DNA of 64,000 nt from IMG/VR virus record IMGVR_UViG_3300049332_000001, positions 1,762 to 65,761 of that record; one strand, written 5' to 3'. Positions 3,630 through 52,821 of this stretch are shown here, piece after piece. The stretch's first letter is position 1. The number at the start of each line of letters is the position of its first letter. Source of the stretch: a virus (Duplodnaviria; Caudoviricetes). The notes under the pieces are model-generated. The model had not been told where the DNA came from. It did no database searches and saw only the letters and a program-made list of their open reading frames with translations. The translations under genes were made by a program, and so were the position numbers.

Positions 3630-4067
3630 ATGAGTATCTGGGACGATTTAGACAAAGAAGCGGCAAAAGACGCTCGCATCGGCGTTCATGACTTTGTGAT
3701 TGATAAGATAAGCGCGGGCAACTGGCCTTCCGGCGATCCATTCATCGAACTGGAGGGCAGGTTGACCACGCATGAAAATCTCAACCTTCGCAGCCGTTTC
3801 AGCCCTGAACCAAGCGAGGAGCAGGCTGCTGAGATAATTGCCAGCAAGGATGGTCGCGCCATTCGCCGCGCCAACGCCGCGCATGTCCAGGGCGTCATGC
3901 TGCGCGAGCAGTACGGCAAGGGGCTGAACGAATTGGGCGCTGGCGATAGCTTGCGGGTAAAAGTCGACTATGAAGACAAGGACAAGAAATACGTCAAGAT
4001 TGCGGCTATCCTGCCCAAAACTGCCGAGTTGTCAAGCAACGGTCATAGCAGCGACATACCCTTCTAG
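3630..4067 (+). CDS. single-stranded DNA-binding protein-like
   Basis: C-terminal SSDIPF tail typical of SSBs; follows a Sak4-like gene; strong SD AAGGAG. Confidence 0.6.
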   Translation: MSIWDDLDKEAAKDARIGVHDFVIDKISAGNWPSGDPFIELEGRLTTHENLNLRSRFSPEPSEEQAAEIIASKDGRAIRRANAAHVQGVMLREQYGKGLNELGAGDSLRVKVDYEDKDKKYVKIAAILPKTAELSSNGHSSDIPF

Positions 4068-4069
4068 CC

Positions 4070-4888
4070 ATGCCTATTGTTGGTTTCTATTGCCCGAAGT
4101 GCAGGGCCAATGTGGCGTTGGGCCACTTTGCCGCAACGTCCTGCGGGTTAGTAATCCATCCTGATTATGCGGCAGCGGCGTTGAACTCTGACGCCGACTA
4201 CTATGGCGCGGGCCTGGTAACAGTCACAGGGGGCATTGGCTGTGTCCGGGCTCGCGCTATAGAGAGAGACAAGCCGGTGTTTGTCAACCCGCTTGACTAT
4301 AATGCGCTGATTCTGGGAAGCGCGTGGGATGCTGCTATGCAGGTTCAGGCCCCTGCTGGCAGCGCCAAGGTTCGAGTTGCTGGAATGATCGAGGGAATAA
4401 GAGTCGAAGGCGAGATAGACAGGGTCCGGCGAGTTGGCGGCAACTTGTTCATCGAAGACCACAAGCACGGCAACAACTTCCAGTACAAGTACCTTGCTGA
4501 GGAGGCTAGCCCGCGAGTCGAGCATGTTGTGCAGACGTCAGTCTACGCGGAGTTGTACGAACAGACGTTTGGAGAGCGCCCCACACACGGAGCGATCTGG
4601 TACAACTTTAGCGGCGCGAACAGCGACCGCAACAAGCCGCCGCTGCTGGCTAAGGTTTACAAGCTAATGGATCTGGCGGCCTGTTTGGCCCATCGGCCTT
4701 ATGGCGGCAATTATACCGTCAGCCAGCTTTATCATCAGGCAGCTGCATATTACCAGTGCGAGGTAGCAGTTGATGCGTTTGACCTGCCCTTAGCAGGAGA
4801 GTCAATGGTGTTTGGTAGTAAGAGTTATTGTGATTACTGTCAAGTGAGAGAGACTTGCTTAACCGCCGCGAAAGGCGCGCCGTTCTGA
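4070..4888 (+). CDS. PD-(D/E)XK exonuclease, Cas4/RecB-like
   Basis: GEID...EDHK...QTSVY motif; N-terminal CPKC and C-terminal CDYC...C cluster ligands. Confidence 0.75.
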   Translation: MPIVGFYCPKCRANVALGHFAATSCGLVIHPDYAAAALNSDADYYGAGLVTVTGGIGCVRARAIERDKPVFVNPLDYNALILGSAWDAAMQVQAPAGSAKVRVAGMIEGIRVEGEIDRVRRVGGNLFIEDHKHGNNFQYKYLAEEASPRVEHVVQTSVYAELYEQTFGERPTHGAIWYNFSGANSDRNKPPLLAKVYKLMDLAACLAHRPYGGNYTVSQLYHQAAAYYQCEVAVDAFDLPLAGESMVFGSKSYCDYCQVRETCLTAAKGAPF

Positions 4889-20797: not shown

Positions 20798-21574
20798 CTA
20801 AAGGAGCGTAACGCTAAGCGACGGATACTCGTTCAGCAAGTACCCGTACATCCTGTTCAACGTGGAATTATCCAACAGCGAATTGCAGTGAATGATTTCC
20901 GCAATATCACCATTGTAGAAATCACCCGCCGTTGGTCCCCGCCCAATTCTGGTCAGGTGAACACCATTCCAGTTGTCATCACCGATCACCAGGTTGCTCT
21001 CAACTTGAGGGCCATCGAAAAAGAGTTGGTACGTCTCACCAAACGAACCACCGTCATCGCGGCGGATCGCCAGCACGTGGAATCCAGCAGAGGCGGAGGT
21101 CGCAAATATTTTGCGCTCACCAAACCCTCGAGAAAAGTACTCGAAGTCTCGCGGGGTTCCTCCGTTGCTGTACCCAGTTATGAATGATGGCCCGCCTTCC
21201 AAGGCAGCATGGTCCCCGGAAAATATATAGCCAGTTCCCGATGTCCGTTTAGTACAAACAACGAACATAGTATTGTTCTCGCCATAAGTGAAGGCGGAGC
21301 CTGTCGGCGTGAGGACATCATCCGTCGCGAAACGTACAACCGCCTTACCGTCGAGGATACCAGACTTGAACGTAGGTCGCGCAGAACCTGCGGCACCGTA
21401 ATCTTTCCCGCCAGCGGCCAAGTCTTCCCATAACGCAACTGGATCACCATCGCTCAGCGATAACGAATTAGCCTTCAGCCAAAAGTCAGTTGTTGGTTCA
21501 TTCAACGGGCTTAAGAATGGTGCATCGCCAACCAGATTCTTCATTGCGAGCAATGCCTGATGTATCGCTCCCAT
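20798..21574 (-). CDS. LamG/concanavalin-like tail-associated protein
   Basis: FWLKANSL...DGDPVALWEDL...RPTF...FYNGDIAEII; start by TAATG overlap. Confidence 0.65.
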   Translation of the reverse strand: MGAIHQALLAMKNLVGDAPFLSPLNEPTTDFWLKANSLSLSDGDPVALWEDLAAGGKDYGAAGSARPTFKSGILDGKAVVRFATDDVLTPTGSAFTYGENNTMFVVCTKRTSGTGYIFSGDHAALEGGPSFITGYSNGGTPRDFEYFSRGFGERKIFATSASAGFHVLAIRRDDGGSFGETYQLFFDGPQVESNLVIGDDNWNGVHLTRIGRGPTAGDFYNGDIAEIIHCNSLLDNSTLNRMYGYLLNEYPSLSVTLL

Positions 21575-22428
21575 TACGACAACCCCGTTCCCGAGATTAG
21601 CCACTCGGTTGTAGTTATCTTCAGAGCGGTTGCTATACCATTTGCCGCTAGCGAGCGCGTTCCAGTAGTTCCGTCCTCTGCCCAAGTAAGGGTATCGGTA
21701 GTTATAGCGATGCTGAGGACGTTGATCTTGTTGACGAATGTAATCGCAGTTCCGAGGGCAAACGGTACGCTCCCATTTGCCGGGATCGTAAAGGTACGCG
21801 CATTGTTGTCTCCGACTGGATGAAACAGGTGCTTGGCCCTGTCAGCAATGACCGCCGTGTAATCGGCTGATTGCGAATTCTGCGGGATGTTCAGGTAGCC
21901 GACTTCCGTAGCGGCAGCATCGTCAGGCAATGTGAGGTTAGAGTCCTGAATCAGTTTGCCAGTGGTGGTGTTGTAACGTGCAACTGCGTTATCCGTGGCT
22001 GAGGCTGGCCCAACGACGTCGCCGCTTCCACTGGGTGGCACTGCAAACGTTCCATCAGCTTTTAGAAACCTGCCCGCAGCCGCATCTCCTGCTGCTGGCG
22101 CTGGCACTAAGCCCTTGGTTCCCCCTGACCCTGAGTCACCCACAACAGCGTTGAGAATTGCCGTCGCTTGCGTAGCAGTAAGGTCTGTTGGATCACCCGT
22201 GCCCGCACCCGCCGCACGGCCCTTGATGGTTGCTTGGGCCATATCTGCCAACTTGGCATTAGTAATGGAACCGTCAGGAACGGAAGCAGTACCAAGGTTG
22301 CCTATTTGGACCTTCTTTGACGATCCTTCCGGGCTATCAGTGGTATCTGATACGTCAATCGTGGTAACGAAATCCGTTGCCGCTGGCGTTGTATCCTCTG
22401 GTAGATCTACAATTTTCTCGTTAGGCAT
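21574..22428 (-). CDS. tail fibre protein
   Basis: DGSITNAKLADMA, GLVPAPAAG, YLNIPQNSQSADYT, EWLISGTGLS fibre-type motifs. Confidence 0.7.
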   Translation of the reverse strand: MPNEKIVDLPEDTTPAATDFVTTIDVSDTTDSPEGSSKKVQIGNLGTASVPDGSITNAKLADMAQATIKGRAAGAGTGDPTDLTATQATAILNAVVGDSGSGGTKGLVPAPAAGDAAAGRFLKADGTFAVPPSGSGDVVGPASATDNAVARYNTTTGKLIQDSNLTLPDDAAATEVGYLNIPQNSQSADYTAVIADRAKHLFHPVGDNNARTFTIPANGSVPFALGTAITFVNKINVLSIAITTDTLTWAEDGTTGTRSLAANGIATALKITTTEWLISGTGLS

Positions 22429-26599: not shown

Positions 26600-27013
26600 C
26601 TAGCTTGGATACTTTCCAATGACTACGCGGCGGTTTTGAATGAGCAGCACGCCGTTGACATCGGCATGGTTCTTCTCGTAGCTGATGAAGCGGCAGCCTG
26701 TGACGGTTGCGCCCTCCGTGCCGGTCCACGGATGATCGCGTGGCTCGATGAACGTGAAGGTCACGTTAATGCCATGCGCGTCCCAGAAGGTGTCAAGAAT
26801 GTTGGCGTCTTCATCGCTTAGACCATCGTAGATAAGCTCGTACTCTTGGAGCGTGTTTGCCGCAGATGTGTTGGTGTCGATGCCTCCGTCCTCAAAATTT
26901 ACAATCACAGTAGCCTTGGCCCAGTCCTTACGATGCTTGACGTACTTCAGGTAAATCGGCCCAGTGTCATAAGCACTGCTATGGAGTGGCGTGGGGTACG
27001 TTGCTTCCGGCAT
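26600..27013 (-). CDS. distal/minor tail protein
   Basis: follows TMP; YELIYDGLS...LDTFW..HG...FTF. Confidence 0.65.
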   Translation of the reverse strand: MPEATYPTPLHSSAYDTGPIYLKYVKHRKDWAKATVIVNFEDGGIDTNTSAANTLQEYELIYDGLSDEDANILDTFWDAHGINVTFTFIEPRDHPWTGTEGATVTGCRFISYEKNHADVNGVLLIQNRRVVIGKYPS

Positions 27014-30748: not shown

Positions 30749-31166
30749 CAGGAAAGTTACTGACGGCCTCCACGGTCGTCTCGCCCTCCTTCAACTTAAC
30801 AGGCAGCGTTGGGCCACCATTCATGGCCCATGTGTGGATATACCAGAAGTCATTAAGCGGCACATCGTCAGGGCTAAGCTGGCCCTCCCTGGGGTTGAGA
30901 TAAAGCGGCGGATTAACTACCACGTCTGCCAGCACCACGCGCGCAAAAGCCATGAGTTGCTCAAGTTCCTTGTCAGGCAGTTGCTCAATCGCGGCTAACT
31001 GCTCGTCAGGCGTGGCCTTGCCGTTCTTACCGCTTACTTTTTGCAGCACTCGCGCAAACTTTCCCGCCTTAACGGCAAGGTCCGGGCCAGTGCGTCGCAC
31101 CATGACCTCGTTGCCGGATGGACAGGATAGCAACGTGGTCTGCCGCTTTTGCCATTGGTTATTCAT
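30696..31166 (-). CDS. tail assembly chaperone
   Basis: between major tail and TMP; LSCPSGNEVMVRR. Confidence 0.7.
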   Translation of the reverse strand: MNNQWQKRQTTLLSCPSGNEVMVRRTGPDLAVKAGKFARVLQKVSGKNGKATPDEQLAAIEQLPDKELEQLMAFARVVLADVVVNPPLYLNPREGQLSPDDVPLNDFWYIHTWAMNGGPTLPVKLKEGETTVEAVSNFPDGRESNLDTRSDSETVQ

Positions 31167-31792
31167 TACGACTGTGCTCCTGCGTTCTGGGTAAAGTACC
31201 TGCCGACCCTATCTGCCGCTGCGCGCGTTGATACTGCCAGCCCGCGAAACGCTACCGGCGACTTGCTAATATCCTTGCTTGTGATGTTGCCTGCCAATCC
31301 AGCATCGTTGAACGCCTTGTACAGATGCACGACGCCAAAGCGTGTAGGGTCGTCCTCAAACGGCCAGATCAGGGCAATCGACGTGTACTGAGGCTCAGCG
31401 TTGCCGATAGTGACGCCCTGCGAGCCCATCACGTCGCTGCGGGTCAGTGTCGGATTCAGCACTTCCGCCAAGTCCATGTCCATGACTTGAAGCAGCGAAC
31501 CTGAGACTAGCGCCTCTTGCGCCGTAACGCGCGAGATGATTGGGTCAGGGGATTCGTCGGCATTGAAGTTGGTGAAGGTGGGCTTGACTGAGAACGTCCA
31601 GCCCGCATCGGTCCAACCTGCATGCTTGGCGTTTGGATTTTGCGTGGAGTCAGGCGTGCCGTCAGTGTGCAGAATCAGGCGAACACCAGCAGCGCCGTCC
31701 CACGCGCCCGAACCACCACCAAGATCGTAGTAAAACTTGCCCGGTCCAATGCCTACGTCTAACGTGTTGAAATTGTCGGCTGTGCCTGCCAA
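31166..31792 (-). CDS. major tail (tube) protein
   Basis: TTG start with SD AGGAGGTG; GIGPGKFY, GWTDAGWTFSV; position after the tail terminator. Confidence 0.8.
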   Translation of the reverse strand: MAGTADNFNTLDVGIGPGKFYYDLGGGSGAWDGAAGVRLILHTDGTPDSTQNPNAKHAGWTDAGWTFSVKPTFTNFNADESPDPIISRVTAQEALVSGSLLQVMDMDLAEVLNPTLTRSDVMGSQGVTIGNAEPQYTSIALIWPFEDDPTRFGVVHLYKAFNDAGLAGNITSKDISKSPVAFRGLAVSTRAAADRVGRYFTQNAGAQS

Positions 31793-39585: not shown

Positions 39586-39777
39586 TTAGTTTACCTCCGC
39601 ACTGTGGCCTAGTTGTATATCGGCAACATCAAGAGTTGCGCCTTCACCTACCGCTCTCTCACCAATCCATCCTGCCTGTTGAAAGTACTGAGCATCATCG
39701 GCCGATACCTCATAACTCTCACCAGCTTCGTAAGTCTCTGCACCATGCTTAAACGTCTGGTTTGGAACGACAATCAT
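39586..39777 (-). CDS. small hypothetical protein downstream of capsid
   Basis: FKHG.ETYEAGESYEV...AGWI. Confidence 0.55.
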   Translation of the reverse strand: MIVVPNQTFKHGAETYEAGESYEVSADDAQYFQQAGWIGERAVGEGATLDVADIQLGHSAEVN

Positions 39778-41123
39778 GCCGCTACCTCATCCTTGCGCTT
39801 ACGCTGTTTGTTCTCGTCAGGCGCGGCGATCATCTTGTTCTCCGCTGGTGCCGCAACCGCTTTGGCGTCAGGATTAATCCAACCATTCCTCTGCGCCAAG
39901 TCTGCCGGAACCATTGCCCCTTTGGGATAGAGTCGAACAACTGCCGTAGCAGGTGCCCGATCTTCATCAGTCATCTGATAGTTTCCATCTGCCAGCTTCC
40001 AGATCCAACGATCTGCTTTCCACATTGCCACAGTTCCGTCACCTTTCCCTTTCCATCGATTGGCTGTCTCAATAAACGCCTGCTCCAGCCGATCAAACTC
40101 CTGCTCGGGCTCAATAGACCGCGCTAGTTCAAGCACAATCTGTGAGCGTTCGTGATAGTAGAAGTCGTCAGTCATCAAGCGCGAAACTTCATTGAACCAT
40201 GCGGCCACGTCGTTGCGGTCGATGAAAATGCCCGCGTCGCCAAACGCTTCTTGCAACCCCAGCGTCGGATGCGCGACTGTTGGAATGCCTGCGCAGGCAG
40301 CTTCAATGCCCACGCGCCCGTAGGACTCATACTCTGACGGCATCAGCAGTACCTTGGTTTTGCGAAACACGTTGCGAATGTCCGGCGTGTGGGCCATCCA
40401 CTCAATATTACCGGCAGCAGGCATTGCACCACCTTTGCGAGGGGCGTCTGGCGCAAGGATCATCTGCTCACCATAGCCGCCTTCGACGGCAAGGAATTCA
40501 CTATCAGGCATTAGCCTCGCCAGCGCCTTGAATGTCTCAACTCCCTTGCCCGGCGTCGGATTTACCAGCGTAATCTTTGTGCCGCGCTCGCATTCATAGT
40601 GCTCGCGTTCAACCACAGGATGGACCACGACTGACGGCGCAAGCCACTCGGCGGGCATGGTGAGCCCGTTGTACGAGCTTGGTCTTGCAGCCAGCCAACG
40701 TGAGTTATATACCGTCAACGCATTCTTGTACGGCACACGCGCATCCACCCGCCAGCACATCATCTGCGCATCATTGTGAACGAAATGGACTAACGGAATC
40801 TTGGTTGACATTGCCAGCATCATTGCCTGATTGGTGAGGTCGAGGTGCGTGACAAGAAGGTCGGAGCCTGCAACGTAGTGTTCCAGCCATGACTGTTGAC
40901 CGCGACGTGGCGGGCGCACCACACTGATGCCGTCGATTTCGTAGGGCGCTGTTCTGCTGTTCGCGCAGATTACGCGTACCTGATGACCGCGCTTGACCAT
41001 TGCGCGCAAGGCTGCATGCAACGTGGTTTCAGAACCAGCACAGTGCTCTGGCGGGAAAAGATGGATTAGGGCTGTTAGCTTCATTAGCAAAATGGCGGGC
41101 GGCTGGCCTTCCGAGGAAAGCAA
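39774..41123 (-). CDS. GT4-family (GT-B) glycosyltransferase with C-terminal extension
   Basis: GSETTLH...RGHQVRV; LLMPSEYESYGRVGIEAACAGIPTV (E-X7-E). Confidence 0.88.
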   Translation of the reverse strand: MLSSEGQPPAILLMKLTALIHLFPPEHCAGSETTLHAALRAMVKRGHQVRVICANSRTAPYEIDGISVVRPPRRGQQSWLEHYVAGSDLLVTHLDLTNQAMMLAMSTKIPLVHFVHNDAQMMCWRVDARVPYKNALTVYNSRWLAARPSSYNGLTMPAEWLAPSVVVHPVVEREHYECERGTKITLVNPTPGKGVETFKALARLMPDSEFLAVEGGYGEQMILAPDAPRKGGAMPAAGNIEWMAHTPDIRNVFRKTKVLLMPSEYESYGRVGIEAACAGIPTVAHPTLGLQEAFGDAGIFIDRNDVAAWFNEVSRLMTDDFYYHERSQIVLELARSIEPEQEFDRLEQAFIETANRWKGKGDGTVAMWKADRWIWKLADGNYQMTDEDRAPATAVVRLYPKGAMVPADLAQRNGWINPDAKAVAAPAENKMIAAPDENKQRKRKDEVAA

Positions 41124-41158: not shown

Positions 41159-42493
41159 TTACGAGTTTGCGCCGGCAAACAGGTCAATCTTGACCACGGC
41201 GGGGGGTCTTAAAACCCCGAACGCCCATCGACCTTCATACAGGATGTCAATGATATTGCGCTCAAAGTGGTCGCGGTTCGAGTCGGTGATATAAACCGTT
41301 GGATCTTGTCGGTCCCAAACCACCAACTGCTTCAAGTCGCCTGAATAGCCGGTACCTTGCGGGATAACCTCAGACTCAATTACAGGCAGGCCCCAGAGCA
41401 TCTTTGTGCCCATCTGCATGGGACCGCCAAAGTAGAACTGGCCCTGAGCACCACGCGCAAGGTCAATGGTTTCCCAGTCGTAGGGGTTGAGCAGGAAGCC
41501 GGTTGAGCGGGCGCGGCCCTGGACCATTGCGGCAGTGCGTGCTTTGCGGGTCGTAGTCAGCAAGCCGCCAGTGGTGTCCTCGCTGTCGGCAACAAACGGC
41601 TGTGGAGTCAGGTTTGGCGTGTTCTCCAGTCCGGTAAAGTGGTTCGCGCCACCTGGCCCGGCAATGATTTCCTCTTCCAGTTCAAGGTCAATGTCGAGGC
41701 GCATGAAGTTCGTCATCATCGATTGCAGTTGCGGCGCGTCGCTGAGGATCGTGCGCGTGGCCTGCATGATGACGGCAATGGTCTTGACGCCTGTTTGCAC
41801 CACTTCCAGCGCCATGCTTGCTTTGGGCTTGAGGGCCAGATCGTCGGTGGCTGACGTTGCTTCAGGGACAATCGCCGCTGCGCGCGTGAGACTGTTGACG
41901 CGCACGTACTCAATCAGGTTGCTGCCAGTTTGCAGGATGGTAATGACGTCGCGAATGCTTGGCTGGCGCAGCGGCAAGTCAACAGGCCACGGGCCATAAT
42001 CGCGGCGCACTAAGCCGCCGCCTGCAGTCACGGGCACCGACATTACCAGATCCTTGAATGACAGGTCGCCCAGACCGACATCTTTCAGCGCGATGGTAGG
42101 CGAGCGGCCAAACCTGACTGACGCGTTCATCTCCTTGCCTTCAGGAGCAATAGACTCGCGCCATGCCTTGAACTCAGGCGCATTGATAATCGCCTCGCCC
42201 ATTGTCTTGATTTCAGGCTGGCCGTTACCATTACCATTGCCGTTGCCAAAGTCAGGGCGGCCCACAGGCTGCGCGAGAAACGTCTCAATCGCTTTCAGGC
42301 GTTTGCTGCGGTCGGCAAACTTGTTCTCTTCGTCAACCTTGGCGCTTAGCTCTTCAATCGACTTCCAGCGTGTGTCAAGCTCAGCTTGCTGCTCGGTGGT
42401 AGGCGTCTCTGCGCCCTGCTTTTCCCAGAACGCTTTCTCGGCCTCCACCAGCGCCTTAAGCTCCTGTGCTGCTGTTTTCTTTTCTTCCGGCAT
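41159..42493 (-). CDS. major capsid protein, HK97 fold
   Basis: N-terminal coiled-coil delta domain; GGGLV, KTIAV, LLNPYDW, LWGLPVIES, RWAFGVLRPPAVV. Confidence 0.93.
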   Translation of the reverse strand: MPEEKKTAAQELKALVEAEKAFWEKQGAETPTTEQQAELDTRWKSIEELSAKVDEENKFADRSKRLKAIETFLAQPVGRPDFGNGNGNGNGQPEIKTMGEAIINAPEFKAWRESIAPEGKEMNASVRFGRSPTIALKDVGLGDLSFKDLVMSVPVTAGGGLVRRDYGPWPVDLPLRQPSIRDVITILQTGSNLIEYVRVNSLTRAAAIVPEATSATDDLALKPKASMALEVVQTGVKTIAVIMQATRTILSDAPQLQSMMTNFMRLDIDLELEEEIIAGPGGANHFTGLENTPNLTPQPFVADSEDTTGGLLTTTRKARTAAMVQGRARSTGFLLNPYDWETIDLARGAQGQFYFGGPMQMGTKMLWGLPVIESEVIPQGTGYSGDLKQLVVWDRQDPTVYITDSNRDHFERNIIDILYEGRWAFGVLRPPAVVKIDLFAGANS

Positions 42494-44101: not shown

Positions 44102-44300
44102 GGTTAACTACTTCACGCAAGATTGACGTTCGACAATATATCATCCGAAACTCCATAGAAGCCGTGCTCAGCGGCCTGCGACAGTGAAGCCGACTAACGA
44201 TCTCAGTCCACGGTTCTTCATAAACAATTTCCCATCCACTTAAATCGTTTAAGGATTCCGCTGTCCAGAAGTCTTCATCACCAACGCGATCAATTCTCAT
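44085..44300 (-). CDS. hypothetical protein
   Basis: ATGA overlap with the GT11 stop. Confidence 0.45.
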   Translation of the reverse strand: MRIDRVGDEDFWTAESLNDLSGWEIVYEEPWTEIVSRLHCRRPLSTASMEFRMIYCRTSILREVVNLETVQ

Positions 44301-45052
44301 TGCCAGTTGATAACCTCCCACCCCTCGCCGTAAATGTCCTCACCTGTAATCGACGTATATCGCGGTCCAAACCATGGGCGTGGTGCAATCACGCGCTTGT
44401 TTGGTGCCTCACCCAGAATCGCTGCCATTGCGCTATAGGCTGAGTTGGCTATGATGAACGATGTGCATCGTTTAAGTAACCGGAAATCATCAAGGTAGTT
44501 GCGTCCCTCGCTGTAGTCAACCTCGTTGCCAAACATTCGCTTGCACTCGACAATGTCGTCGCTGAAGACGAGAAACTTTGCGCCGGAGAATCGTTCCATT
44601 GCCGCGCGGTAGTAACTCTCAGGCACACGCGGGTGATAGCCGCCGTCGTAGTCGCCGCGCCGGACGTGGATGCCAACGTAGGTGTTTTGTGGGGGCTCGT
44701 CTTTCATTCGCAGCCAAAACCTAACCCCATCAAGACAATGGGCGAAATAGCGTTCGCTTTGCAGGTGCCCGCTGAGGCTAACGCTCTCTGTCAGGCGTAC
44801 GTCGTGATAGCCCCAATTGATGAAACGGCCAGGCAGTGTTGGACCACTGTAAACAGGCAGCGGGTTAACAAAGTGGCGATATACGTCGCAGTCCTCAGTT
44901 GAGCCAAAGCGGTCTTTATGATCGTGGTTCATCCAGCGCGGAAAAGCGAAGTCAAAGCCGTTGCGGCGGGCTATCCCTATCGTGCTCGCAACTTGAAACA
45001 TCTGGTTCGCCAGACGGCCGTAATGGCCTAACGCATTGAAGGTTACTATCAT
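44297..45052 (-). CDS. GT11 alpha-1,2-fucosyltransferase
   Basis: GRLANQMFQ, HVRRGDY, VFSDD, IIANS.YS, VIAPRPWF. Confidence 0.93.
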   Translation of the reverse strand: MIVTFNALGHYGRLANQMFQVASTIGIARRNGFDFAFPRWMNHDHKDRFGSTEDCDVYRHFVNPLPVYSGPTLPGRFINWGYHDVRLTESVSLSGHLQSERYFAHCLDGVRFWLRMKDEPPQNTYVGIHVRRGDYDGGYHPRVPESYYRAAMERFSGAKFLVFSDDIVECKRMFGNEVDYSEGRNYLDDFRLLKRCTSFIIANSAYSAMAAILGEAPNKRVIAPRPWFGPRYTSITGEDIYGEGWEVINWQ

Positions 45053-45090
45053 AGTTCACGCTACTCTTACCACATCGCAGACATACCGCT

Positions 45091-46008
45091 TCACCTTGAT
45101 CCAGCATCTCCCACTCGTGCGCGATACCAATCAAAGGTTGAGCAGAGTCCGTCATACAGGTTGATTTTAGCATGCCAGCCAAGTGCATTAAGGCGCGTAC
45201 TATCTAGCAGCTTGCGTGGCGGTCCATCGGGTTTGGAGGGGTCAAACTTAATCTCGCCGCGATAGCCGACAATCTCAGCAATCATGTGAGCGAGCTCGCT
45301 GATAGTGACTTCTTGCCCGGAACCTACGTTAATTGGCTCACTGTCATTGTATTCAGCCATCAGGGCTATTAGCGCATTAGCAAGATCGTCAACGTGAAGA
45401 AACTCACGCAGCACCTTACCAGTGCCCCAAAGCGTGATTGAACGATCCTCGTTGCATGCTGCCCGGCAAAGCCGCGACATCAGCGACGGAATAACATGCG
45501 CGTCGATGGAGTCAAAGTGATCGTTAGGACCATACAAGTTAGTAGGCATGGCGCTAATCGCATTGAAGCCGTATTGCTTGCGATAGGCTTGGCACATCTT
45601 CAGTCCCGCAATCTTGGCAATTGCGTACCATTGGTTTGTTGGCTCAAGCGGGCCGGTAAGCAGCGCGTCTTCACTGATTGGCTGCTGTGCGTCGCGTGGG
45701 TAGATGCAAGAGGAACCGAGGAAGAGAAGTTTCTCACAATCGTTTAGTCGGGCAGCGTTAATAACATTGCACTGGATTAGAAGATTGTCGCGGATGAAGT
45801 CAGCGGGATAGGCTGAGTTTGCGTGGATGCCGCCGACCTTGGCCGCTGCGAGATAGACATGCTGGATCTTATTACCCCAAAAGAAGCCGTAGGTGTCTGC
45901 CTGGCTTCTTAGGTCAAGTTGCGCGTGGGTATGTGTAACAGCATCAGGTATACGCCGCAGCAATGCACTACCAACAAGTCCCGTGTGACCCGCAACGTAA
46001 ACGCTCAC
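45091..46008 (-). CDS. fcl: GDP-L-fucose synthase
   Basis: GHTGLVGSA, AAAKVGGI, LGSSCIYP, YAIAK, PTNLYGPND, REFLHVDDLA, DGPPRKLLD. Confidence 0.96.
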   Translation of the reverse strand: MSVYVAGHTGLVGSALLRRIPDAVTHTHAQLDLRSQADTYGFFWGNKIQHVYLAAAKVGGIHANSAYPADFIRDNLLIQCNVINAARLNDCEKLLFLGSSCIYPRDAQQPISEDALLTGPLEPTNQWYAIAKIAGLKMCQAYRKQYGFNAISAMPTNLYGPNDHFDSIDAHVIPSLMSRLCRAACNEDRSITLWGTGKVLREFLHVDDLANALIALMAEYNDSEPINVGSGQEVTISELAHMIAEIVGYRGEIKFDPSKPDGPPRKLLDSTRLNALGWHAKINLYDGLCSTFDWYRARVGDAGSR

Positions 46009-46020
46009 TTGTTCTCTCCG

Positions 46021-46470
46021 TTAAGCATACTCGTGCAGGTGAATGACCGCCGGTCGATGGCCGTGTGGCCGCTGACCTGCCTGAAACGCGCGCCACTCAA
46101 ATTGCTGATCCAACTGACTCCAGTGCTTGTCCATGCCCTGCCAGATGTCGGGTAGCAGGTTCATTAGTTCGCCAGAAAACTTGGCGCAGCCAAAGCTATG
46201 AAAGATGCCAATACCATGTTGATCGTACGAGTACGCGCACCACGACGCCGGGCAGGCAATTAACTCTTCCAACGCACCCGGCCACGGCAAAATATCGTGC
46301 TCGATTAGGACAACTGTTTCGCGTTGCTGCCATAGTTCCGTAAGCAGCGTCCAGTAGGCGTCGTCACTGGCACTGACGTCAACGTAATGCGGATTGTAAT
46401 GCCTGAGTAGCCATTGTTGCTCCCGCCGCAACCTCGTGTAGGGAACAACAACCTTCATGTCCGTAGCCAA
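46021..46470 (-). CDS. compact putative GT-A-fold glycosyltransferase
   Basis: VVVPY start, LIEHDILP (DxD-like), GCAKF, LD..F, terminal HLH; context. Confidence 0.5.
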   Translation of the reverse strand: MATDMKVVVPYTRLRREQQWLLRHYNPHYVDVSASDDAYWTLLTELWQQRETVVLIEHDILPWPGALEELIACPASWCAYSYDQHGIGIFHSFGCAKFSGELMNLLPDIWQGMDKHWSQLDQQFEWRAFQAGQRPHGHRPAVIHLHEYA

Positions 46471-46479
46471 ACCAGTCCG

Positions 46480-46710
46480 CTAATCATCATTACACTGTTT
46501 CAACGATGGGGTATCACGCGAGCATTGGTCTACGGCCTTGCGAGCTACCGCATCACCAGCACGTTCCAGTGACTTGCCAGCACTGCGAGCTATCGGGCAG
46601 GGGGCTTGACGCAGTGCGGCGCCAGCTAATCCCGCTGCATGACCGACGGTTACGGCCCCTGTACGCATTGTGTTGGTGTAGTGATCGGTTAGTGTTTTCT
46701 TCCTGCTCAT
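46480..46710 (-). CDS. hypothetical protein
   Basis: ORF 76 aa. Confidence 0.5.
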   Translation of the reverse strand: MSRKKTLTDHYTNTMRTGAVTVGHAAGLAGAALRQAPCPIARSAGKSLERAGDAVARKAVDQCSRDTPSLKQCNDD

Positions 46711-46946
46711 TATGCTTCCCTTCTCTCTGCCTCTCTAAGAAATATCTGGAATTCGCGGTACGCTTTGAAGTTATCAAAACTCAAACGAGCCTGCTTAATG
46801 GACTGGTTAAGCGCTGCCAGTAAACCGTCGCGATCTAACTCAGTTACAGCAACGCCGTAGTATCTCACATTCTCCACGCCCTCTTTGTCGCGCTCAATGG
46901 TTGCTCTTGGTATTTCCCTCATCATAATCCTTTCAGCCATGCCCAA
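46710..46946 (-). CDS. hypothetical protein
   Basis: ORF 78 aa. Confidence 0.5.
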   Translation of the reverse strand: MGMAERIMMREIPRATIERDKEGVENVRYYGVAVTELDRDGLLAALNQSIKQARLSFDNFKAYREFQIFLREAERREA

Positions 46947-46954
46947 TTTAGGTT

Positions 46955-47140
46955 TTATCCAAGGTCTACAACCTTATTCGTCGCGCCATCAAAGGCCATT
47001 TTCCCGCCCGTTATAATACCTACGTCTTCGGGTTGTAGCTCTACAGGTGACGAGTCATAGCCCTGCCATTTCTGTACAGGTATATCGCCATGCTCCACCA
47101 ACAGAGATTGCAGTTCATTAATTAACTCGGACAGTTTCAT
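46955..47140 (-). CDS. hypothetical protein
   Basis: MKLSELINELQ..L.EHGDIPV. Confidence 0.6.
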   Translation of the reverse strand: MKLSELINELQSLLVEHGDIPVQKWQGYDSSPVELQPEDVGIITGGKMAFDGATNKVVDLG

Positions 47141-47208
47141 GTTACCCACGTTCTATTAAAATACTGCTCCCACTCCAGCAACGGATGCGGCTCACACTCG
47201 GGGAACAA
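47137..47208 (-). pseudogene. stranded duplicate of the methyltransferase 3' end
   Basis: encodes LFPECEPHPLLEWEQYFNRTWVT*, versus LFPEITGHPLLDHELYFNRSWMNT* at 48010-48084. Confidence 0.8.
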
Positions 47209-47209
47209 T

Positions 47210-48025
47210 CTAAACATGCGACCACAACCTCCGACTCAAAACTGCCTTGATAGTTGCAGTCGCTACTCCGAATTCATCCGCGAGCATGGTTATGGTGTGA
47301 ATGTTGGGATTGTACTTTTCACGGATAGAGAGAACAGACCCCCTATTTAGCTTTGCCCGTGGATGCGCTTCGCCTTTTTTACCTTCTCGCCCTTGCATCG
47401 CTTCGCTCAAACGCTGACTCTTCATTTCAGCATGTACGGATGCGAATCCGGGACTCGCGCCCGTCAACGCTACATGGCCCCACAACTTACCGCTCAGGAT
47501 GTAAGCCACTGTTGTTCGCCCAACGCCATATCGTTCGGCAAGCATTTTGTGAGTATAGCGGCCCGTGGTGTACTTTGATCTGATTTCCCGTACGTCGCGC
47601 TCGGTCAAGACGCTATTACCGTTCGACTCGCCTCGCAGTGCTGTGTGCAGACCCGTCTCAACCGCATGAACACCATTCTCTGGCTTAGTACACCATTCTA
47701 AGTTGCTAGGACGGTTGTCAGTCTTGATACCGTTCTTATGGTTAACGAACGGCTTGCCTTCAGGGTTAGGAATGAACGCCAAGGCGATCAGTCTGTGGGC
47801 TAAAAATGTTTGCTTACCAGGCTGCGCAGTAGAAAGAACGGAGTGAGATAAATAGTTACCATCGTCTGACTTAGCAGTCAAGATCCGTTCTCTCTTTAGA
47901 AATGAATAACCCTTTCCGCGCGAACTATGGCCCATCCGGGCTAATGATTTTAGCCGACCGAGAGAACTAGCCTGATAACCCGGAAAGCCCGGAATGTCTC
48001 GCCACTCTTCTATGTGTTCATCCAT
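47210..48025 (-). mobile_element. NUMOD4-HNH homing endonuclease with duplicated C-terminal HTH
   Basis: EEWRDIPGFPGYQASSLGRL (NUMOD4), HRLIA.AF, VNHKNGIKTDNRPSNLEWCT..EN; two GE.h...LT...V..IR repeats. Confidence 0.9.
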
Positions 48026-48636
48026 GATCGGTTGAAGTATAACTCATGATCTAACAGTGGATGGCCCGTTATTTCAGGAAACAGGTGCATATACTCTTGC
48101 TGTAAGAGGATGAGATTTCCGCTGTGCGCCAACAATGCGTAGCCGCGTTCCAGCGCCGCCATCGTCATGGCCCAATAGCCGACGCCGCCGTCGCTGTTGA
48201 CCCGCTCGCCAGGCGGTTCGATGCTGGAGTCAATTTCGACTATCACGATCTTGGGGCGGGCTTGCATGCCGCAGAAAATAGCGTAATCGCTACCATCAGT
48301 ATCCAGACTAAGCAGGTCACAACGTTCGTCGACAAAGGCATTGACGTTACGCGCGTCTACGCGGGAGCACTGGCAACGCACAAGTGAATTGTGTTTCCAG
48401 TTTGAGACGCACTGCTGATAGAGGCCATAGTCAGATTCAACAAACAAGCCCGTCACGACGCTGGTGTCACTCTCAATGAGCCATGCGGTATTAGAGCAGA
48501 AGCGTCCGTTGTGAGCGCCGATTTCAACGCAGTGGAAGATACCGATACCACGCTTCTGGCACTCTAACAAGATCCCTTCCTCACCATTTTGTGAGCAGGA
48601 GATGTTGCGAGCATATTTATGTAGGAAGCTAAGCAC
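48010..48636 (-). CDS. FkbM-like SAM-dependent methyltransferase
   Basis: SQNGEEGIL, VEIGAHNG...SNT, LLSLDTDGSDY, PKIVIVEI. Confidence 0.8.
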   Translation of the reverse strand: MLSFLHKYARNISCSQNGEEGILLECQKRGIGIFHCVEIGAHNGRFCSNTAWLIESDTSVVTGLFVESDYGLYQQCVSNWKHNSLVRCQCSRVDARNVNAFVDERCDLLSLDTDGSDYAIFCGMQARPKIVIVEIDSSIEPPGERVNSDGGVGYWAMTMAALERGYALLAHSGNLILLQQEYMHLFPEITGHPLLDHELYFNRSWMNT

Positions 48637-48856
48637 TGGTTTTCACTACATGCTCCACGAGAGCCCCGCCGTACAATCCATATGTAACCTTAGACGAAAC
48701 CACTTCGTAGGTTACTGAGTCGCGGACGAACATTTCCCCTTGCCCATGAATACGCCTGAAAATATAACGCTCCACCCACAGTACTTCACCGTCCTCGTTG
48801 ATAGCAATCTCCGCTGCCGCCTTAACCGGATATTCTGTTACGCTAGTAGATTCCAT
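48629..48856 (-). CDS. hypothetical protein
   Basis: ORF 75 aa. Confidence 0.5.
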   Translation of the reverse strand: MESTSVTEYPVKAAAEIAINEDGEVLWVERYIFRRIHGQGEMFVRDSVTYEVVSSKVTYGLYGGALVEHVVKTSA

Positions 48857-49647
48857 TCGTGGTTCCTCTTTCTGTGGTGGTTAAACAAGATCGGATAATC
48901 ATCACCCTCATACTCCGGCAGCTTCTCGTAAACAAATGCGCCATCGTTGTACGAGGCGGGCCAATAATGCAAAGTTAGACCATCACGATACGCCATCGTT
49001 GTCAATATCGCCTGATCATGCCGATGCTCGCGAAACTCAGGATGATTAGGTGCGCGCGAGGGCGAATCGTCAATCAGTCTGCCGCCTTCAAACAGGCACC
49101 ACTTGAGCCATTCCTTTACAAACGCGCGGGTGTAGTCAGAGACACGGAAGAAGATCACGCTGGCTTGGCATTGCTTGCCGAAGCGTGACCACATTTGCTC
49201 TGAGCGATAACGGTAATCATCTTCAGTCTTTACGGTTCCTATTCTATAGTCGGGCCACACCGTCTCTACCACATCTCGCTTGCACCAATGCGCGTGCTCC
49301 CAGTTATTGCCGAACAGGAAGATGTCTTGGTCCATACGCTCAATGATGTGAGAGACAGGAGCGATGAACTCGATTCCTGCATCCGCATATATGCAGACAT
49401 CACCGTTACGTAGCAACTGTAAATCATGACAGATAATTGCGGGCTTCCAAATCCAATACCCAACGCCACGAGGCTGTGCCATAAGTTGTTTAAATGCCGC
49501 GCTCCCATTGTCTAGCATGCCCACGCTAACTGGGTCCCATGAAGATGTATGATTAACCCCATTCCGCTTAGCACTCTCAACACACAACTGCCGCGAGCGG
49601 CTCATGCTTTCATCTGAGAAGGTAACAAGATGGACTGTCATGGGCAT
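48838..49647 (-). CDS. putative GT-A / nucleotide-diphospho-sugar transferase
   Basis: GYWIWKP, YADAG (DxD-like), EHRHDQAILT. Confidence 0.7.
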   Translation of the reverse strand: MPMTVHLVTFSDESMSRSRQLCVESAKRNGVNHTSSWDPVSVGMLDNGSAAFKQLMAQPRGVGYWIWKPAIICHDLQLLRNGDVCIYADAGIEFIAPVSHIIERMDQDIFLFGNNWEHAHWCKRDVVETVWPDYRIGTVKTEDDYRYRSEQMWSRFGKQCQASVIFFRVSDYTRAFVKEWLKWCLFEGGRLIDDSPSRAPNHPEFREHRHDQAILTTMAYRDGLTLHYWPASYNDGAFVYEKLPEYEGDDYPILFNHHRKRNHEWNLLA

Positions 49648-49937
49648 ATCTCATATTCACGTATCTGGTAGACCAAACTATCGGACGCTCGTCCAAACTC
49701 ATCGTAGTACCCACAACTGTCGCGCCGATCTACGATCTCCCACTGTAGGTTCCCGTGACTACCGTCAAGTGACTCGGGTATGTAACGCCTTGCTGCCCCC
49801 ACGGACGCGAATACGCCTTCAAGAAAATCTTCGCAAGCGCAGCCACTAAAGTTATGCGAACGCTCTTTAGGTACCCAGTCGTCACAGGGATAGAAAGCGT
49901 AGAGTAGGTATACGCGCTGTTCAACTCCCTCGCTCAT
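49638..49937 (-). CDS. hypothetical protein
   Basis: ORF 99 aa. Confidence 0.5.
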   Translation of the reverse strand: MSEGVEQRVYLLYAFYPCDDWVPKERSHNFSGCACEDFLEGVFASVGAARRYIPESLDGSHGNLQWEIVDRRDSCGYYDEFGRASDSLVYQIREYEICP

Positions 49938-50548
49938 CTCAACCTTGCCTCGCTAGCCTTAAATATCTCCGTGTAGTCATCAACTCCGTCACGCTGCCAG
50001 ATGGAGCTAAAACGCGGCCTCTGCCATGCTACCATCGGCGCAACACAGTAAGCGTTTAGTTCCGGCAGCAAGTCGCTCAGCGCATTGTCAAACATCTGTG
50101 CGCTGAATTCAGGTTGACGCTCCAGTATACGTCTGACACATGACTTGTGATAAGCAATTGCGTGGGTAGTCCATGCTGCCCGTACTCGCCACAGGTGCTC
50201 GCTGAACCGCTCCGGGGCAGGCTCCCCATTATTCCAGCAGACCAAGTTCGCGCCAAGGTACAGGATGTCCCAGTCGGCAGGCAGTTCGCTGATTGCTTGC
50301 GGCAAGTGGCTCAAGTCGCGAAACACAACGTCGTCTTCAAGATGCAGCAGGCGATTGTCTTCTGAGAACAGGAACTCAAGTAGGATGTTGCGCTCGCTGT
50401 GGTTAAATGATTGATGCGGACCGATCTCTTTGACGGCATCGTACTTTTCCACGGTCAGACCCACACGCTGGAATTCAGCGCATGCTTTAAGCCATTCGCC
50501 GGGGTTGGCAGTCAGGCAGACACGGCGCTGGAAAAAGGACCAGTTCAC
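49934..50548 (-). CDS. GT25-family glycosyltransferase
   Basis: LHLEDDVVF, WDILYLG, THAIAY, AWQRP..SSI. Confidence 0.82.
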   Translation of the reverse strand: MNWSFFQRRVCLTANPGEWLKACAEFQRVGLTVEKYDAVKEIGPHQSFNHSERNILLEFLFSEDNRLLHLEDDVVFRDLSHLPQAISELPADWDILYLGANLVCWNNGEPAPERFSEHLWRVRAAWTTHAIAYHKSCVRRILERQPEFSAQMFDNALSDLLPELNAYCVAPMVAWQRPRFSSIWQRDGVDDYTEIFKASEARLR

Positions 50549-50873: not shown

Positions 50874-51104
50874 CTACTTGTTACAACTGCCGCCGTGACA
50901 CATGATCAGGCAGCATTCGTACTCGGACTGACAGATGGATAGACATTCAGCGTTGCCGTTACACGCTGCCTGACAGGCGTTGCGGTCCGTGATGCAGTGG
51001 GCACAGCCTGCCAGAGCGGCTTCCGTGTTGCTGGTGGTCCATGCTCCGGTTGGAGTCAGTAACATGACTACAGCAAGCAGCATTAAAGCAAGTGTTCGTT
51101 TCAT
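50874..51104 (-). CDS. secreted Cys-rich mini-protein (10 Cys)
   Basis: signal peptide MKRTLALMLLAVVMLL; SD GAAAGGA. Confidence 0.75.
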   Translation of the reverse strand: MKRTLALMLLAVVMLLTPTGAWTTSNTEAALAGCAHCITDRNACQAACNGNAECLSICQSEYECCLIMCHGGSCNK

Positions 51105-51275
51105 ATTTGAGTTTCCTTTCGGTTTGAAGTTGCGTAACTGTTGCTACTTGTCAAAGATTGAATTGCGCGGGCGCGGTAGTCGAGTGGCACTAAGAGGCTA
51201 GCATCACGGGAGCCTGCCTACCGTTCCTATCCCGCTGTTTAGTCGCATTGCTGCCGCCCGCGCAAACTTGAATTG

Positions 51276-51710
51276 TCAATCGCTGCCAGAACTCTCAACG
51301 GCAGTTAACGCAGCTCGACAAACCGCTTCAGGTAAAGTGCCCGCACTCGCTTGTCCGCCACGTTCGTATTCAAGCGTGGCGAATTCTGCCCACCATTCCC
51401 CGCTTTTGGGGTCGCAACGATCATTACAAGCAAATCGGAAGTGATCGCGTCGCATCTTCTCAACTACTTCCATTGCGGCTTCAATGGATTCACTGTATTC
51501 AGGCACGCATCGCATTTCTACGGGCTCAATGCCACCTTGCTGACGATAACGCATCTGCTTCCATTCCAGCATCTCTTCGCCGCAGTTCTCGCAAAACCCT
51601 TCACCGTTGTCTGCATGGGCTATATGAGCCATTGCCCGTTCAGCAACAGCCGCATCAAGTTCGCGTCCACTCAGTTTTTCCACTGGCTCAATAGTCTTTT
51701 GTCTGTTCAT
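51276..51710 (-). CDS. phage ABA-sandwich-domain protein
   Basis: GRELDAAVAE, PEYSESIEAAMEVVEKM, PEAVCRAAL. Confidence 0.75.
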   Translation of the reverse strand: MNRQKTIEPVEKLSGRELDAAVAERAMAHIAHADNGEGFCENCGEEMLEWKQMRYRQQGGIEPVEMRCVPEYSESIEAAMEVVEKMRRDHFRFACNDRCDPKSGEWWAEFATLEYERGGQASAGTLPEAVCRAALTAVESSGSD

Positions 51711-51835
51711 TATTGCTTACCTTCAAGCACCGCAACACGGCGCTGGAGGTCGCGGATCTGGGCGCGATAGTGGAAGACGCCTATGATAGCAAACCATATT
51801 AGCAACCAAAGTAAGAATGCTTCACCGCGTCTCAC
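51710..51835 (-). CDS. small membrane peptide
   Basis: hand translation, TM plus short coil; TAATG overlap. Confidence 0.5.
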   Translation of the reverse strand: MRRGEAFLLWLLIWFAIIGVFHYRAQIRDLQRRVAVLEGKQ

Positions 51836-52017
51836 CTTTTGATTGTCGCTCCGCTCACCCATCGCTCGGACCCCGCTTTAGTACGCTGATAACAACGCTC
51901 ATGCAGGTGCGTAAAACTCCTTTGCCGCTGCGTTAATCTTTTCAGGAGCACCGCGATAGGTCGCCGATGCTCCGCAGCGCGCACAATAAACCAGCATCGA
52001 CGCCAGTAACTGCTCAA
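51832..52017 (-). CDS. hypothetical protein
   Basis: ORF; start uncertain. Confidence 0.35.
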   Translation of the reverse strand: MSSYWRRCWFIVRAAEHRRPIAVLLKRLTQRQRSFTHLHERCYQRTKAGSERWVSGATIKR

Positions 52018-52071
52018 GTGGACTTTCTTTGTCAGCCATCCCGCTCACCTGTCCCTTTTTCACTTACCTGC

Positions 52072-52263
52072 TCAATGATCCAGCAGCACAAACCCGCTAA
52101 CCATCATTGCCAGACAAACTATCATCGCTACAGCCATGAAAGCCCAGAGGTATTGTTCTGTTCCGGACTCGCGAATGGCTTGCACGAAACTGGTAACAGC
52201 GCCTGTCGTAAGAACTAGTAAGATACTACCAATGCAACCTGCCGTTTTAATCCTGTCGCTCAT
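52072..52263 (-). CDS. small 2-TM membrane protein
   Basis: two hydrophobic segments. Confidence 0.55.
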   Translation of the reverse strand: MSDRIKTAGCIGSILLVLTTGAVTSFVQAIRESGTEQYLWAFMAVAMIVCLAMMVSGFVLLDH

Positions 52264-52423
52264 CGCCCGCCCCGAAGGTGTTTTTGCACTCGTTCTCGTT
52301 GCTCATCAAAGTCACGCTCCATACGGCGGAATTTTCGATAGGCAAGTACGCCGCCAGCGAGATTCGCGGCTACGAGCAGGATAACTATGCCAGCTATCAG
52401 ATACCAGATCCATGTTGGCACGC

Positions 52424-52612
52424 TCATCGCCCGCCCTTCCCCTGCGTGTTAGCCGCAACCGCCATCATGGCCCAGTAAATCGCGAATAGTCCGTTAAAGA
52501 CAGCTAAAAACACACAAAGCCAGCGCGCAGAATGATTGCTGATGACTACCGCAATTCCCGCCGAGGCAGCGGAGATCCAAGCGGAACCAGACATCCATAA
52601 AAGGTGGTTCAC
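52424..52612 (-). CDS. small 2-TM membrane protein
   Basis: two hydrophobic segments; GTGA overlap. Confidence 0.55.
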   Translation of the reverse strand: MNHLLWMSGSAWISAASAGIAVVISNHSARWLCVFLAVFNGLFAIYWAMMAVAANTQGKGGR

Positions 52613-52821
52613 TTGACTGCTCGCCCCTTCCCTTGCGTGCTGCTGGTAGCTGGTCGCTCAAACAGCCAACGCAATAACTTAATCATTGTAGTCGCGTCTA
52701 TCTGCTCGCCTCGCTCAATGCGTGATACCGTACCATGTGAGACGCCAATCATCTGCGCCGCTTCACGCACACCCAGATCGCGCTTTTGTCGCCAGCTGCG
52801 TATGACCTCACCTATCTTCAT
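52609..52821 (-). CDS. XRE-family HTH regulator
   Basis: IRSWRQKRDLGVREAAQMIGVSHGTVSRIERG. Confidence 0.88.
   Translation of the reverse strand: MKIGEVIRSWRQKRDLGVREAAQMIGVSHGTVSRIERGEQIDATTMIKLLRWLFERPATSSTQGKGRAVK

Follow-up and report, generated by a model that had tools for sequence, protein, structure and literature searches.

A fucose-related gene cassette in the head operon of an uncultured soil phage suggests glycosylation of the virion

What does a phage do with sugar-modifying enzymes that are encoded among the genes for its own head? The question is raised by an uncultured phage of the Caudoviricetes (IMG/VR record IMGVR_UViG_3300049332_000001), of which we analyzed 64 kb (the window) of a 65.8-kb virus record rated 97% complete. 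On the minus strand of the window, at 44297–50548, lies a cassette encoding a GDP-L-fucose synthase (Fcl), a GT11-family protein, a methyltransferase-like protein, and further established or candidate glycosyltransferases. An initial annotation, all of whose named open reading frames (ORFs) were present on that strand, had read the cassette as building a methylated, fucosylated oligosaccharide on the virion. With moderate confidence, and by analogy with the mycobacteriophages Che8 and Corndog, we interpret it as a virion O-glycosylation system that uses mostly unrelated enzymes and adds a fucose branch dependent on host Gmd. Virion glycosylation thus stands as the best reading, carried by a core of genes kept across a clade, by a matching gene position in Corndog and by a fold match to the A064R enzyme of the virus PBCV-1, while its target is presumed and the glycan structure conjectural. 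What is inferred here comprises late expression, the acceptor, the sequence in which the enzymes act and the linkages between the sugars; the structure Fuc-α1,2-Gal is a conjecture.

The late operon runs along the minus strand from large terminase, portal (PF04860) and a weak Mu-F-like minor head gene through about 2.7 kb of small genes to the cassette. After the cassette follow an S78 prohead protease gene, an HK97-type major capsid gene, a GT4 glycosyltransferase gene and two ORFs of 807 and 975 amino acids (aa) that matched no family, and beyond these come the genes for head-tail connection, for a tail-tube candidate and for the tape measure (Table 1). The initially proposed placement, past the minor head gene and ahead of the protease gene, is right as to order, but the minor head gene is separated from the cassette by the 2.7 kb of unrelated genes. 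In order of transcription the cassette encodes the 204-aa protein, a 99-aa ORF, the 269-aa protein, a 75-aa ORF, the 208-aa FkbM-like protein, a 271-aa HNH protein, three small ORFs, the 149-aa protein, Fcl and GT11, and three further small ORFs precede the protease; the HNH homing endonuclease and five small ORFs in the interval had been left out of the initial annotation. From the 204-aa gene through the protease, capsid and GT4 genes, each gene follows the last in the same direction, overlapping it or leaving no more than 62 nucleotides (nt) between, and promoter-like and terminator-like sites across the cassette occurred at chance level relative to shuffled sequence. Given this close packing and an orientation common to cassette and head genes, the two are probably expressed together.

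Table 1. Features of the cassette and its presumed acceptors (positions in the window; assignments predicted from sequence, position or structure model)
Feature	Position	Strand	Basis or remark
Major tail (tube) protein candidate, presumed second acceptor	31166..31792	-	assigned by position; ends NAGAQS
GT4 (GT-B) glycosyltransferase	39774..41123	-	35 nt past capsid gene
Major capsid protein, presumed acceptor	41159..42493	-	PHROG 10; ends FAGANS
GT11-family (alpha-1,2-fucosyltransferase-type) protein	44297..45052	-	PF01531, PHROG 2644
GDP-L-fucose synthase (Fcl/GMER)	45091..46008	-	NF047922 and solved Fcl structures; without partner Gmd
149-aa protein (G149)	46021..46470	-	no family or solved-structure match
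Three small ORFs (64, 78, 76 aa)	46480..47149	-	no family matches; patchy in relatives
Relic of original methyltransferase 3' end, 23 codons	47137..47208	-	just after HNH stop; translation matches C-terminal consensus of relatives' methyltransferase
271-aa HNH homing endonuclease (NUMOD4 + HNH_3 + HTH)	47210..48025	-	Pfam and PHROG
208-aa FkbM-like methyltransferase (E208), borderline	48010..48636	-	PF05050, TIGR01444 under cut-offs; S-adenosylmethionine (SAM) motif
75-aa ORF	48629..48856	-	no family match; in no relative
269-aa retaining-type GT-A glycosyltransferase (C269)	48838..49647	-	AlphaFold2 (AF2) model, fold matches; W-x-WKP, D89, H-D-Q
99-aa ORF	49638..49937	-	overlaps both neighbors; no family match; in one relative only, L018
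204-aa candidate glycosyltransferase (A204), first cassette gene	49934..50548	-	invariant LHLEDD and YLG motifs

Freeman et al. in 2023 reportedly found virion glycosylation in a few mycobacteriophage clusters and hardly any trace of it elsewhere among phages. In Corndog, portal gp34 and protease gp39 flank an O-methyltransferase and three transferases (gp35–38), which thus take up the slot that the cassette occupies in the window. Similar to Che8 and Corndog, the window combines soluble transferases, an O-methyltransferase (here predicted) and a transferase of about 205 aa (here a candidate); the capsid and tail proteins of these two mycobacteriophages end in serine (GS, DGS, VGS, GDS), as do the AGANS and AGAQS ends found in the window. 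According to two papers that cite Freeman et al., O-glycans are borne by the capsid and the tail tube of Che8 and Corndog (PMC11600133, PMC12363180), Corndog gp35–38 modify both of these structures (PMC11600133), and the transferases Che8 gp110 and Corndog gp38 are essential (PMC12363180).

The enzymes themselves are of different kinds. Pfam placed Corndog gp35 and one domain of Che8 gp108 among TylF-type methyltransferases, found Che8 gp108 and gp109 and Corndog gp37 to be GT2-type or weakly GT2-like, assigned Che8 gp110 (of the Che8 set gp108–110) and Corndog gp38 to GT25, and gave no assignment for Corndog gp36. In the window, by contrast, the predicted methyltransferase is FkbM-type and GT2-type enzymes are lacking, whereas Fcl, GT11, a GT6/GT8-like retaining GT-A protein and GT4 are predicted additions to what the mycobacteriophage sets contain. 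Separately, we observed matches of the Che8 gp110 type (GT25) in 661 Mycobacterium, 35 Gordonia, 11 Escherichia, 7 Klebsiella, 6 Serratia and 4 Cronobacter phage records.

We compared the window with 18 IMG/VR contigs bearing a recognizable relative of its capsid gene, the close ones having capsids 77–99% identical to that of the window. Every close relative that covers the region keeps the genes for the 204-aa protein, the 269-aa protein, the FkbM-like protein, Fcl and GT11 between minor head and protease, save L004, which has no Fcl. Identities range from 51% to 95%. L004, a complete relative, also has no 149-aa gene, and retains GT11 and the other core genes. GT11 is present in 16 of 16 relatives covering its site, the 204-aa protein in 10 relatives (64–93% identical), and the GT4 gene follows the capsid gene in all 14 whose contigs reach that far, while the 149-aa gene occurs in 9 of the 15 that cover its site. 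Where synonymous divergence (dS) could be computed, ratios of nonsynonymous to synonymous substitution (dN/dS) in the cassette were about 0.06–0.14, like that of the capsid gene, although these values are rough because dS is saturated. Two distant relatives (capsid 31–38% identical), both short contigs, contained no cassette homologue.

Fcl is identified by sequence as a GDP-L-fucose synthase, as initially called. It matched the NCBIfam model GDPFucSynFcl (NF047922) with an E-value of 1.9e-135 (451 bits, under the curated 500-bit cut-off) and aligned at full length (residues 3–300) with solved enzymes, among them 8du0 (E 5.7e-107) and E. coli 1e6u (E 2e-97). The motifs GHTGLVG, GSSCIYP, YAIAK and AHVIP are kept in the alignment to 8du0 and are invariant or nearly so across 14 relatives; the roles of GxxGxxG, Ser-x-Cys, YxxxK and the epimerase His are those known from E. 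coli GMER. No gmd was found in the whole record or in five near-complete relatives. Since Fcl occurs without Gmd, the phage must draw on GDP-4-keto-6-deoxymannose made by the host. Assignment of GT11 to its family is firm, with linkage and donor predicted from the family type, and here too the initial call held: the protein matched PF01531 at 55.7 bits (cut-off 23.9; aligned at model positions 162–297 only) and PHROG 2644 over its full length (E 3e-42), and its translation shows HVRRGDY and GRLANQMFQ. A search by sequence gave no relative of solved structure for GT11.

Fcl, GT11 and GT4 are also classic surface-polysaccharide families, typical of lipopolysaccharide (LPS), O-antigen and exopolysaccharide synthesis, which counts against a virion role and in favor of the main rival explanation, remodeling of the host envelope. 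In that case the enzymes would act at the cytoplasmic face on undecaprenyl-linked O-antigen, LPS-core or exopolysaccharide intermediates, and methylated fucose-containing residues would block superinfection or keep progeny from sticking to debris. The closest cellular homologues of Fcl, which are bacterial (54–62% identical; mostly Proteobacteria, Desulfovibrio and Bryobacterales metagenome-assembled genomes), agree with this explanation, and bacterial GDP-L-fucose/H-antigen modules combine Gmd-Fcl with GT11 enzymes such as FutC and WbgL; the window GT11 has HxRRGDY. However, no Gmd, Wzx/Wzy or priming transferase was found with the module in the window, which also differs from the bacterial ones in being embedded in a phage head operon. 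Moreover, hidden Markov models of the 204-, 269- and 149-aa proteins found no homologue in 80 bacterial Fcl neighborhoods, which yielded two FkbM-like ORFs only.

Phage Gtr (GtrABC) seroconversion modules are likewise phage-borne sugar genes. Whole-record searches gave no match to GtrA (PF04138) or GT2/GtrB (PF00535), none of the cassette proteins has a transmembrane (TM) segment (maximum 19-mer Kyte-Doolittle value 1.44), and neither an export component nor another membrane-embedded part was found. The absences on which the initial annotation relied, of TM segments in the cassette and of gmd, GtrA, GT2 and thymidylate-synthase-family genes in the record, were thus confirmed. The argument that it built on the missing membrane parts, against serotype conversion, is nevertheless weak: the glycosyltransferases of O-antigen synthesis are as a rule cytoplasmic, either soluble or peripheral, and in general need no TM segment. 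A lasting seroconversion is unlikely since no (tyrosine) integrase was found in the genome. Given in addition that the genes are packed among head genes and fixed there across the clade, we consider envelope remodeling unlikely and continue to favor the virion as the site of the glycan.

A second rival, hypermodification of DNA, holds that the transferases decorate modified phage bases to escape restriction, and phage glycosyltransferases are in general often DNA-directed. No thymidylate-synthase or dCMP-hydroxymethylase family enzyme was found in the whole record, so the initial case against DNA glycosylation holds to the extent that this search can show; Fcl, GT11 and FkbM proteins have no generally known role in DNA-linked sugars, and the genes lie among those for head assembly rather than replication. 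This explanation is extremely improbable.

The fold match that supports a role on the virion comes from the 269-aa protein, for which no Pfam family was found. A profile search of 1.84 billion representatives related it to 4430 clusters (E<=1e-3) that have W-x-WKP, H-D-Q and one unvarying Asp in common; W67, K68, D89, D211 and Q212 are invariant. An AF2 model built from 11 close relatives reached a predicted local distance difference test (pLDDT) score of 52, and one built from a diverse homologue alignment 95.7. The best Foldseek matches of the model were retaining GT-A enzymes of families GT8 and GT6 (E down to 6e-8). Against 48,161 representative chains, VIA ranked BoGT6a first (Z 14.5), then domain 1 of PBCV-1 A064R (Z 13.8, root mean square deviation 3.2, 181 residues) and GTB (Z 13.2), followed at about Z 12 by WbbM, glycogenin, UGGT and LgtC (12.1–12.2 for LgtC and glycogenin); comparison with the GT6 chains BoGT6a and GTA gave Z 14.5–14.8. 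The A064R domain 1 structure is described as "involved in the glycosylation of the major capsid", and its likeness to the 269-aa protein, at about 10% sequence identity, is one of fold only. At the position of the metal motif, the invariant D89 reads D-A-G instead of DxD; metal-independent GT6 enzymes exist, according to the title of 4ayj. The protein, initially called GT-A-like from its GYWIWKP and EHRHDQ motifs, is thus confirmed at the level of the modeled fold as a GT-A glycosyltransferase of retaining type, and no CAZy family can be assigned because the top three fold matches lie within about one Z unit.

This family also occurs in cyanophages, whose sugar genes are usually taken as modifiers of the cell surface (PMC12801897), a point on the side of envelope remodeling. 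A tblastn search of 50,697 phage records with the 204-aa and 269-aa proteins returned only distant matches from uncultured phages and cyanophages, and megablast of the same records gave no match to the cassette. Metagenomes hold hundreds of distinct homologues of each protein, the best 120 listed of each being 58–93% identical; the word-index matches listed were close clade members only, without Pfam labels. Profiles of the 204-, 269-, 208- and 149-aa families matched sequences of solved structure at chance level only. As side observations, the 269-aa GT-A family, which has no Pfam model, includes fused forms of up to 846 aa, and its structural relatives include proteins of cyanophages and, in BFVD, of the eukaryotic giant viruses Hyperionvirus and EhV-86.

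The first cassette gene encodes a protein that had initially been assigned to GT25, an assignment that our searches did not sustain. The 204-aa protein had no match in Pfam, NCBIfam or PHROG, and neither it nor three divergent relatives matched PF01755 (GT25) at E-values up to 5–10. An Atlas feature search gave as nearest neighbors viral clusters in which 29% and 68% of members carry PF01755 (score 0.97), and hhalign aligned the protein with a ten-member Che8 gp110/Corndog gp38 alignment over 94 columns, around an EDD...YLG...W-T...HA core, at an E-value of 0.003 with a probability of 10.5%; BLASTP against the Che8 and Corndog enzymes gave E 0.095. We regard the protein as possibly a small GT-A transferase, a candidate only, and do not count it as a GT25 member. 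Membership of the capsid-adjacent enzyme in GT4 is, on sequence grounds, firm, both GT-B halves scoring above cut-off (Glyco_trans_1_4, 49.0 against 27 bits; Glyco_trans_4_4, 38.0 against 29.7 bits).

The 149-aa protein, taken initially for a compact GT-A-like enzyme, showed no relation to any transferase by profile comparison or Atlas. Comparisons by hhalign and profile of its family with the 204-aa, 269-aa and gp110 families and with the GT25 set were not significant, its Atlas neighbors are viral hypothetical-protein clusters, and a word-index search reached 33% identity with matches that carry no labels. Its family comprises about 200 metagenomic hypothetical proteins with invariant E57, D59, C73, D121 and H138 and near-invariant H58, C95, H136 and H144, a pattern that, as we observed in passing, resembles a metal site more than a standard DxD transferase core. 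Of the up to five glycosyltransferases first proposed, three are thus firm (the 269-aa GT-A protein, GT11 and GT4) and one, of 204 aa, is a candidate, whereas the 149-aa protein is unsupported.

The FkbM-like call is borderline. The 208-aa protein fell just under the PF05050 cut-off (E 2.3e-4, 21.8 against 22.7 bits) and well under that of TIGR01444 (E 0.011, 16.1 against 37.7 bits), but VEIGxxxG (SAM motif I) and D-T-D-G are kept by the methyltransferase in 13 relatives. In a separate observation, relative L008 carries a second, divergent FkbM-type gene at 3728–4315, upstream of the conserved one and above the PF05050 cut-off (26.6 bits), which hints at variable methylation patterns.

If the virion is glycosylated, which proteins would carry the glycan? 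The likeliest acceptors, as in Che8 and Corndog, would be C-terminal serines of the capsid (AGANS) and tail tube (AGAQS). The capsid C-terminus in relatives follows [AS]G[ATED]NS. The tail-tube candidate, for which no family match was found, was assigned from its neighbors: ahead of it are a Neck1/tail-completion gene (171 aa) and an ORF of 173 aa, and behind it an ORF of 156 aa and the tape measure. It ends in NAGAQS in four relatives and in one, L004, in AVGS; the L004 capsid still ends AGANS. Among ORFs of at least 50 aa in six frames of the window, only the capsid protein and the tail-tube candidate have an A[NQ]S ending.

A different possibility is that fibers, decoration proteins or host proteins are glycosylated and that the AGA(N/Q)S ends are unrelated. 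The top folds of the 269-aa protein include protein-glycosylating GT-A enzymes with varied acceptors (glycogenin, UGGT, GlyE, Skp1 galactosyltransferase), and serine ends occur without transferases: two other late proteins of the window end in serine without AGA(N/Q)S (21574–22428, ...GTGLS; 26600–27013, ...GKYPS), and so do the capsid and tail proteins of mycobacteriophage Charlie, which has no gp110 homologue. Because Charlie has a serine ending without a gp110-type transferase, the ending is not specific, and a C-terminal serine alone is not diagnostic of glycosylation; these observations count against our interpretation. Nonetheless, a five-residue ending unique in the window to two unrelated abundant structural proteins, and one that mirrors the sole experimentally described phage system, leaves these other targets improbable, and capsid and tail tube our preferred acceptors.

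Further points weigh against glycosylation of the virion. No cassette enzyme was demonstrably homologous to the Che8 or Corndog enzymes (best BLASTP E 0.003 over 35 residues), and because enzyme similarity is not significant, the likeness is one of architecture and logic, not orthology. Since moron-like genes, the 2.7 kb upstream, sit beside the cassette, its position among head genes is no proof of a virion role. The close-relative sample contains no cassette-free phage; co-occurrence of cassette and serine tag therefore cannot be contrasted. Finally, the phage is known from soil metagenomes only.

On our interpretation, the pathway would proceed as follows. Fcl would turn host-made GDP-4-keto-6-deoxymannose into GDP-L-fucose, and as a lone enzyme it may either boost an existing host fucose pathway or divert another 6-deoxyhexose pathway. 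An oligosaccharide would then be assembled in the cytoplasm, directly on folded structural proteins, by four soluble enzymes: the 204-aa candidate, the 269-aa GT-A protein, GT11 and GT4. Candidates for priming the serine are the 204-aa protein, by analogy with gp110 and gp38, and the capsid-adjacent GT4. GT11 would add fucose, and the FkbM-type methyltransferase would O-methylate a sugar.

A viral precedent is found in PBCV-1. For glycosylation of its capsid protein (Vp54), the relevant genes are A064R, A075L, the GMD gene A118R and the GMER gene A295L. Like the window, PBCV-1 has virus-encoded cytoplasmic transferases that act on the major capsid protein (shown for PBCV-1, presumed here), and A064R supplies the fold match described above; unlike the window phage, it belongs to the eukaryotic giant viruses, its glycans are N-linked, and it has a GMD of its own. 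It encodes GMER, its capsid carries fucose, and a sugar methyltransferase domain is present (PMC7019647).

The HNH gene is a selfish element inserted into the cassette and has no part in the pathway. It is missing at the cassette site from all sampled relatives and from soil contigs of other studies: in soil runs X2 and X3 the bins at 47276–47977 had essentially no contig cover, with contig joints that skip the gene. It is placed within the 3' end of the methyltransferase gene, whose product still has a complete C-terminus, and a relic of the original 3' end follows it (Table 1). The interval between the core genes is a hot-spot for homing endonucleases, with HNH here and GIY-YIG(+NUMOD3) in four relatives (L004, L006, L007, L015). 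Upstream of the cassette, the 2.7 kb next to the minor head gene contains, at 50874–52821, an HTH_3 gene of XRE type, a gene for a Phage_ABA_S domain protein, a Cys-rich ORF of 76 aa whose signal peptide marks it as secreted, and three small ORFs that are hydrophobic and, as judged by eye, may encode membrane proteins; this island is moron-like, lies inside the head operon and is mostly not common to relatives.

The stretch is contained in soil metagenomes from several studies and has a G+C content of about 54%. None of the cultured phages resembled it in DNA sequence, and the capsid protein matched actinophage capsids best, at only about 35% identity. No tRNAs were found in the genome, PHROGs of the lysis region yielded a holin only, and the closest Fcl matches, as a clue to the host, do not exceed 62% identity and come from scattered taxa.

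The cassette suggests that virion glycosylation also occurs among uncultured soil phages, in a clade that is abundant, with an enzyme set that differs from the mycobacteriophage systems and brings its own nucleotide-sugar step. Its fullest form, in which a soil-phage clade, probably not of actinophages, fucosylates and methylates capsid and tail through an AGA(N/Q)S serine tag and a lone Fcl that diverts the host Gmd product, we regard as distinctly doubtful. In that form, GT11 paired with the GT6-like retaining GT-A enzyme could even yield a histo-blood-group-like Fuc-α1,2-Gal(+α1,3-hexose) epitope. If true, such a tagged particle would be the first fucosylated bacteriophage particle, and virion glycosylation would have been invented independently of mycobacteriophages and chloroviruses. 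Should the role of the cassette in virion glycosylation be confirmed, glycoengineering would gain another independent set of enzymes that O-glycosylate proteins in the cytoplasm at a short C-terminal tag. Confirmation would also give a functional anchor to a large unannotated GT-A family (the 4430 clusters), and would make it possible to test the functions of particle glycans away from animal hosts, such as desiccation tolerance, adhesion to the soil matrix, or shielding from proteases and grazers.

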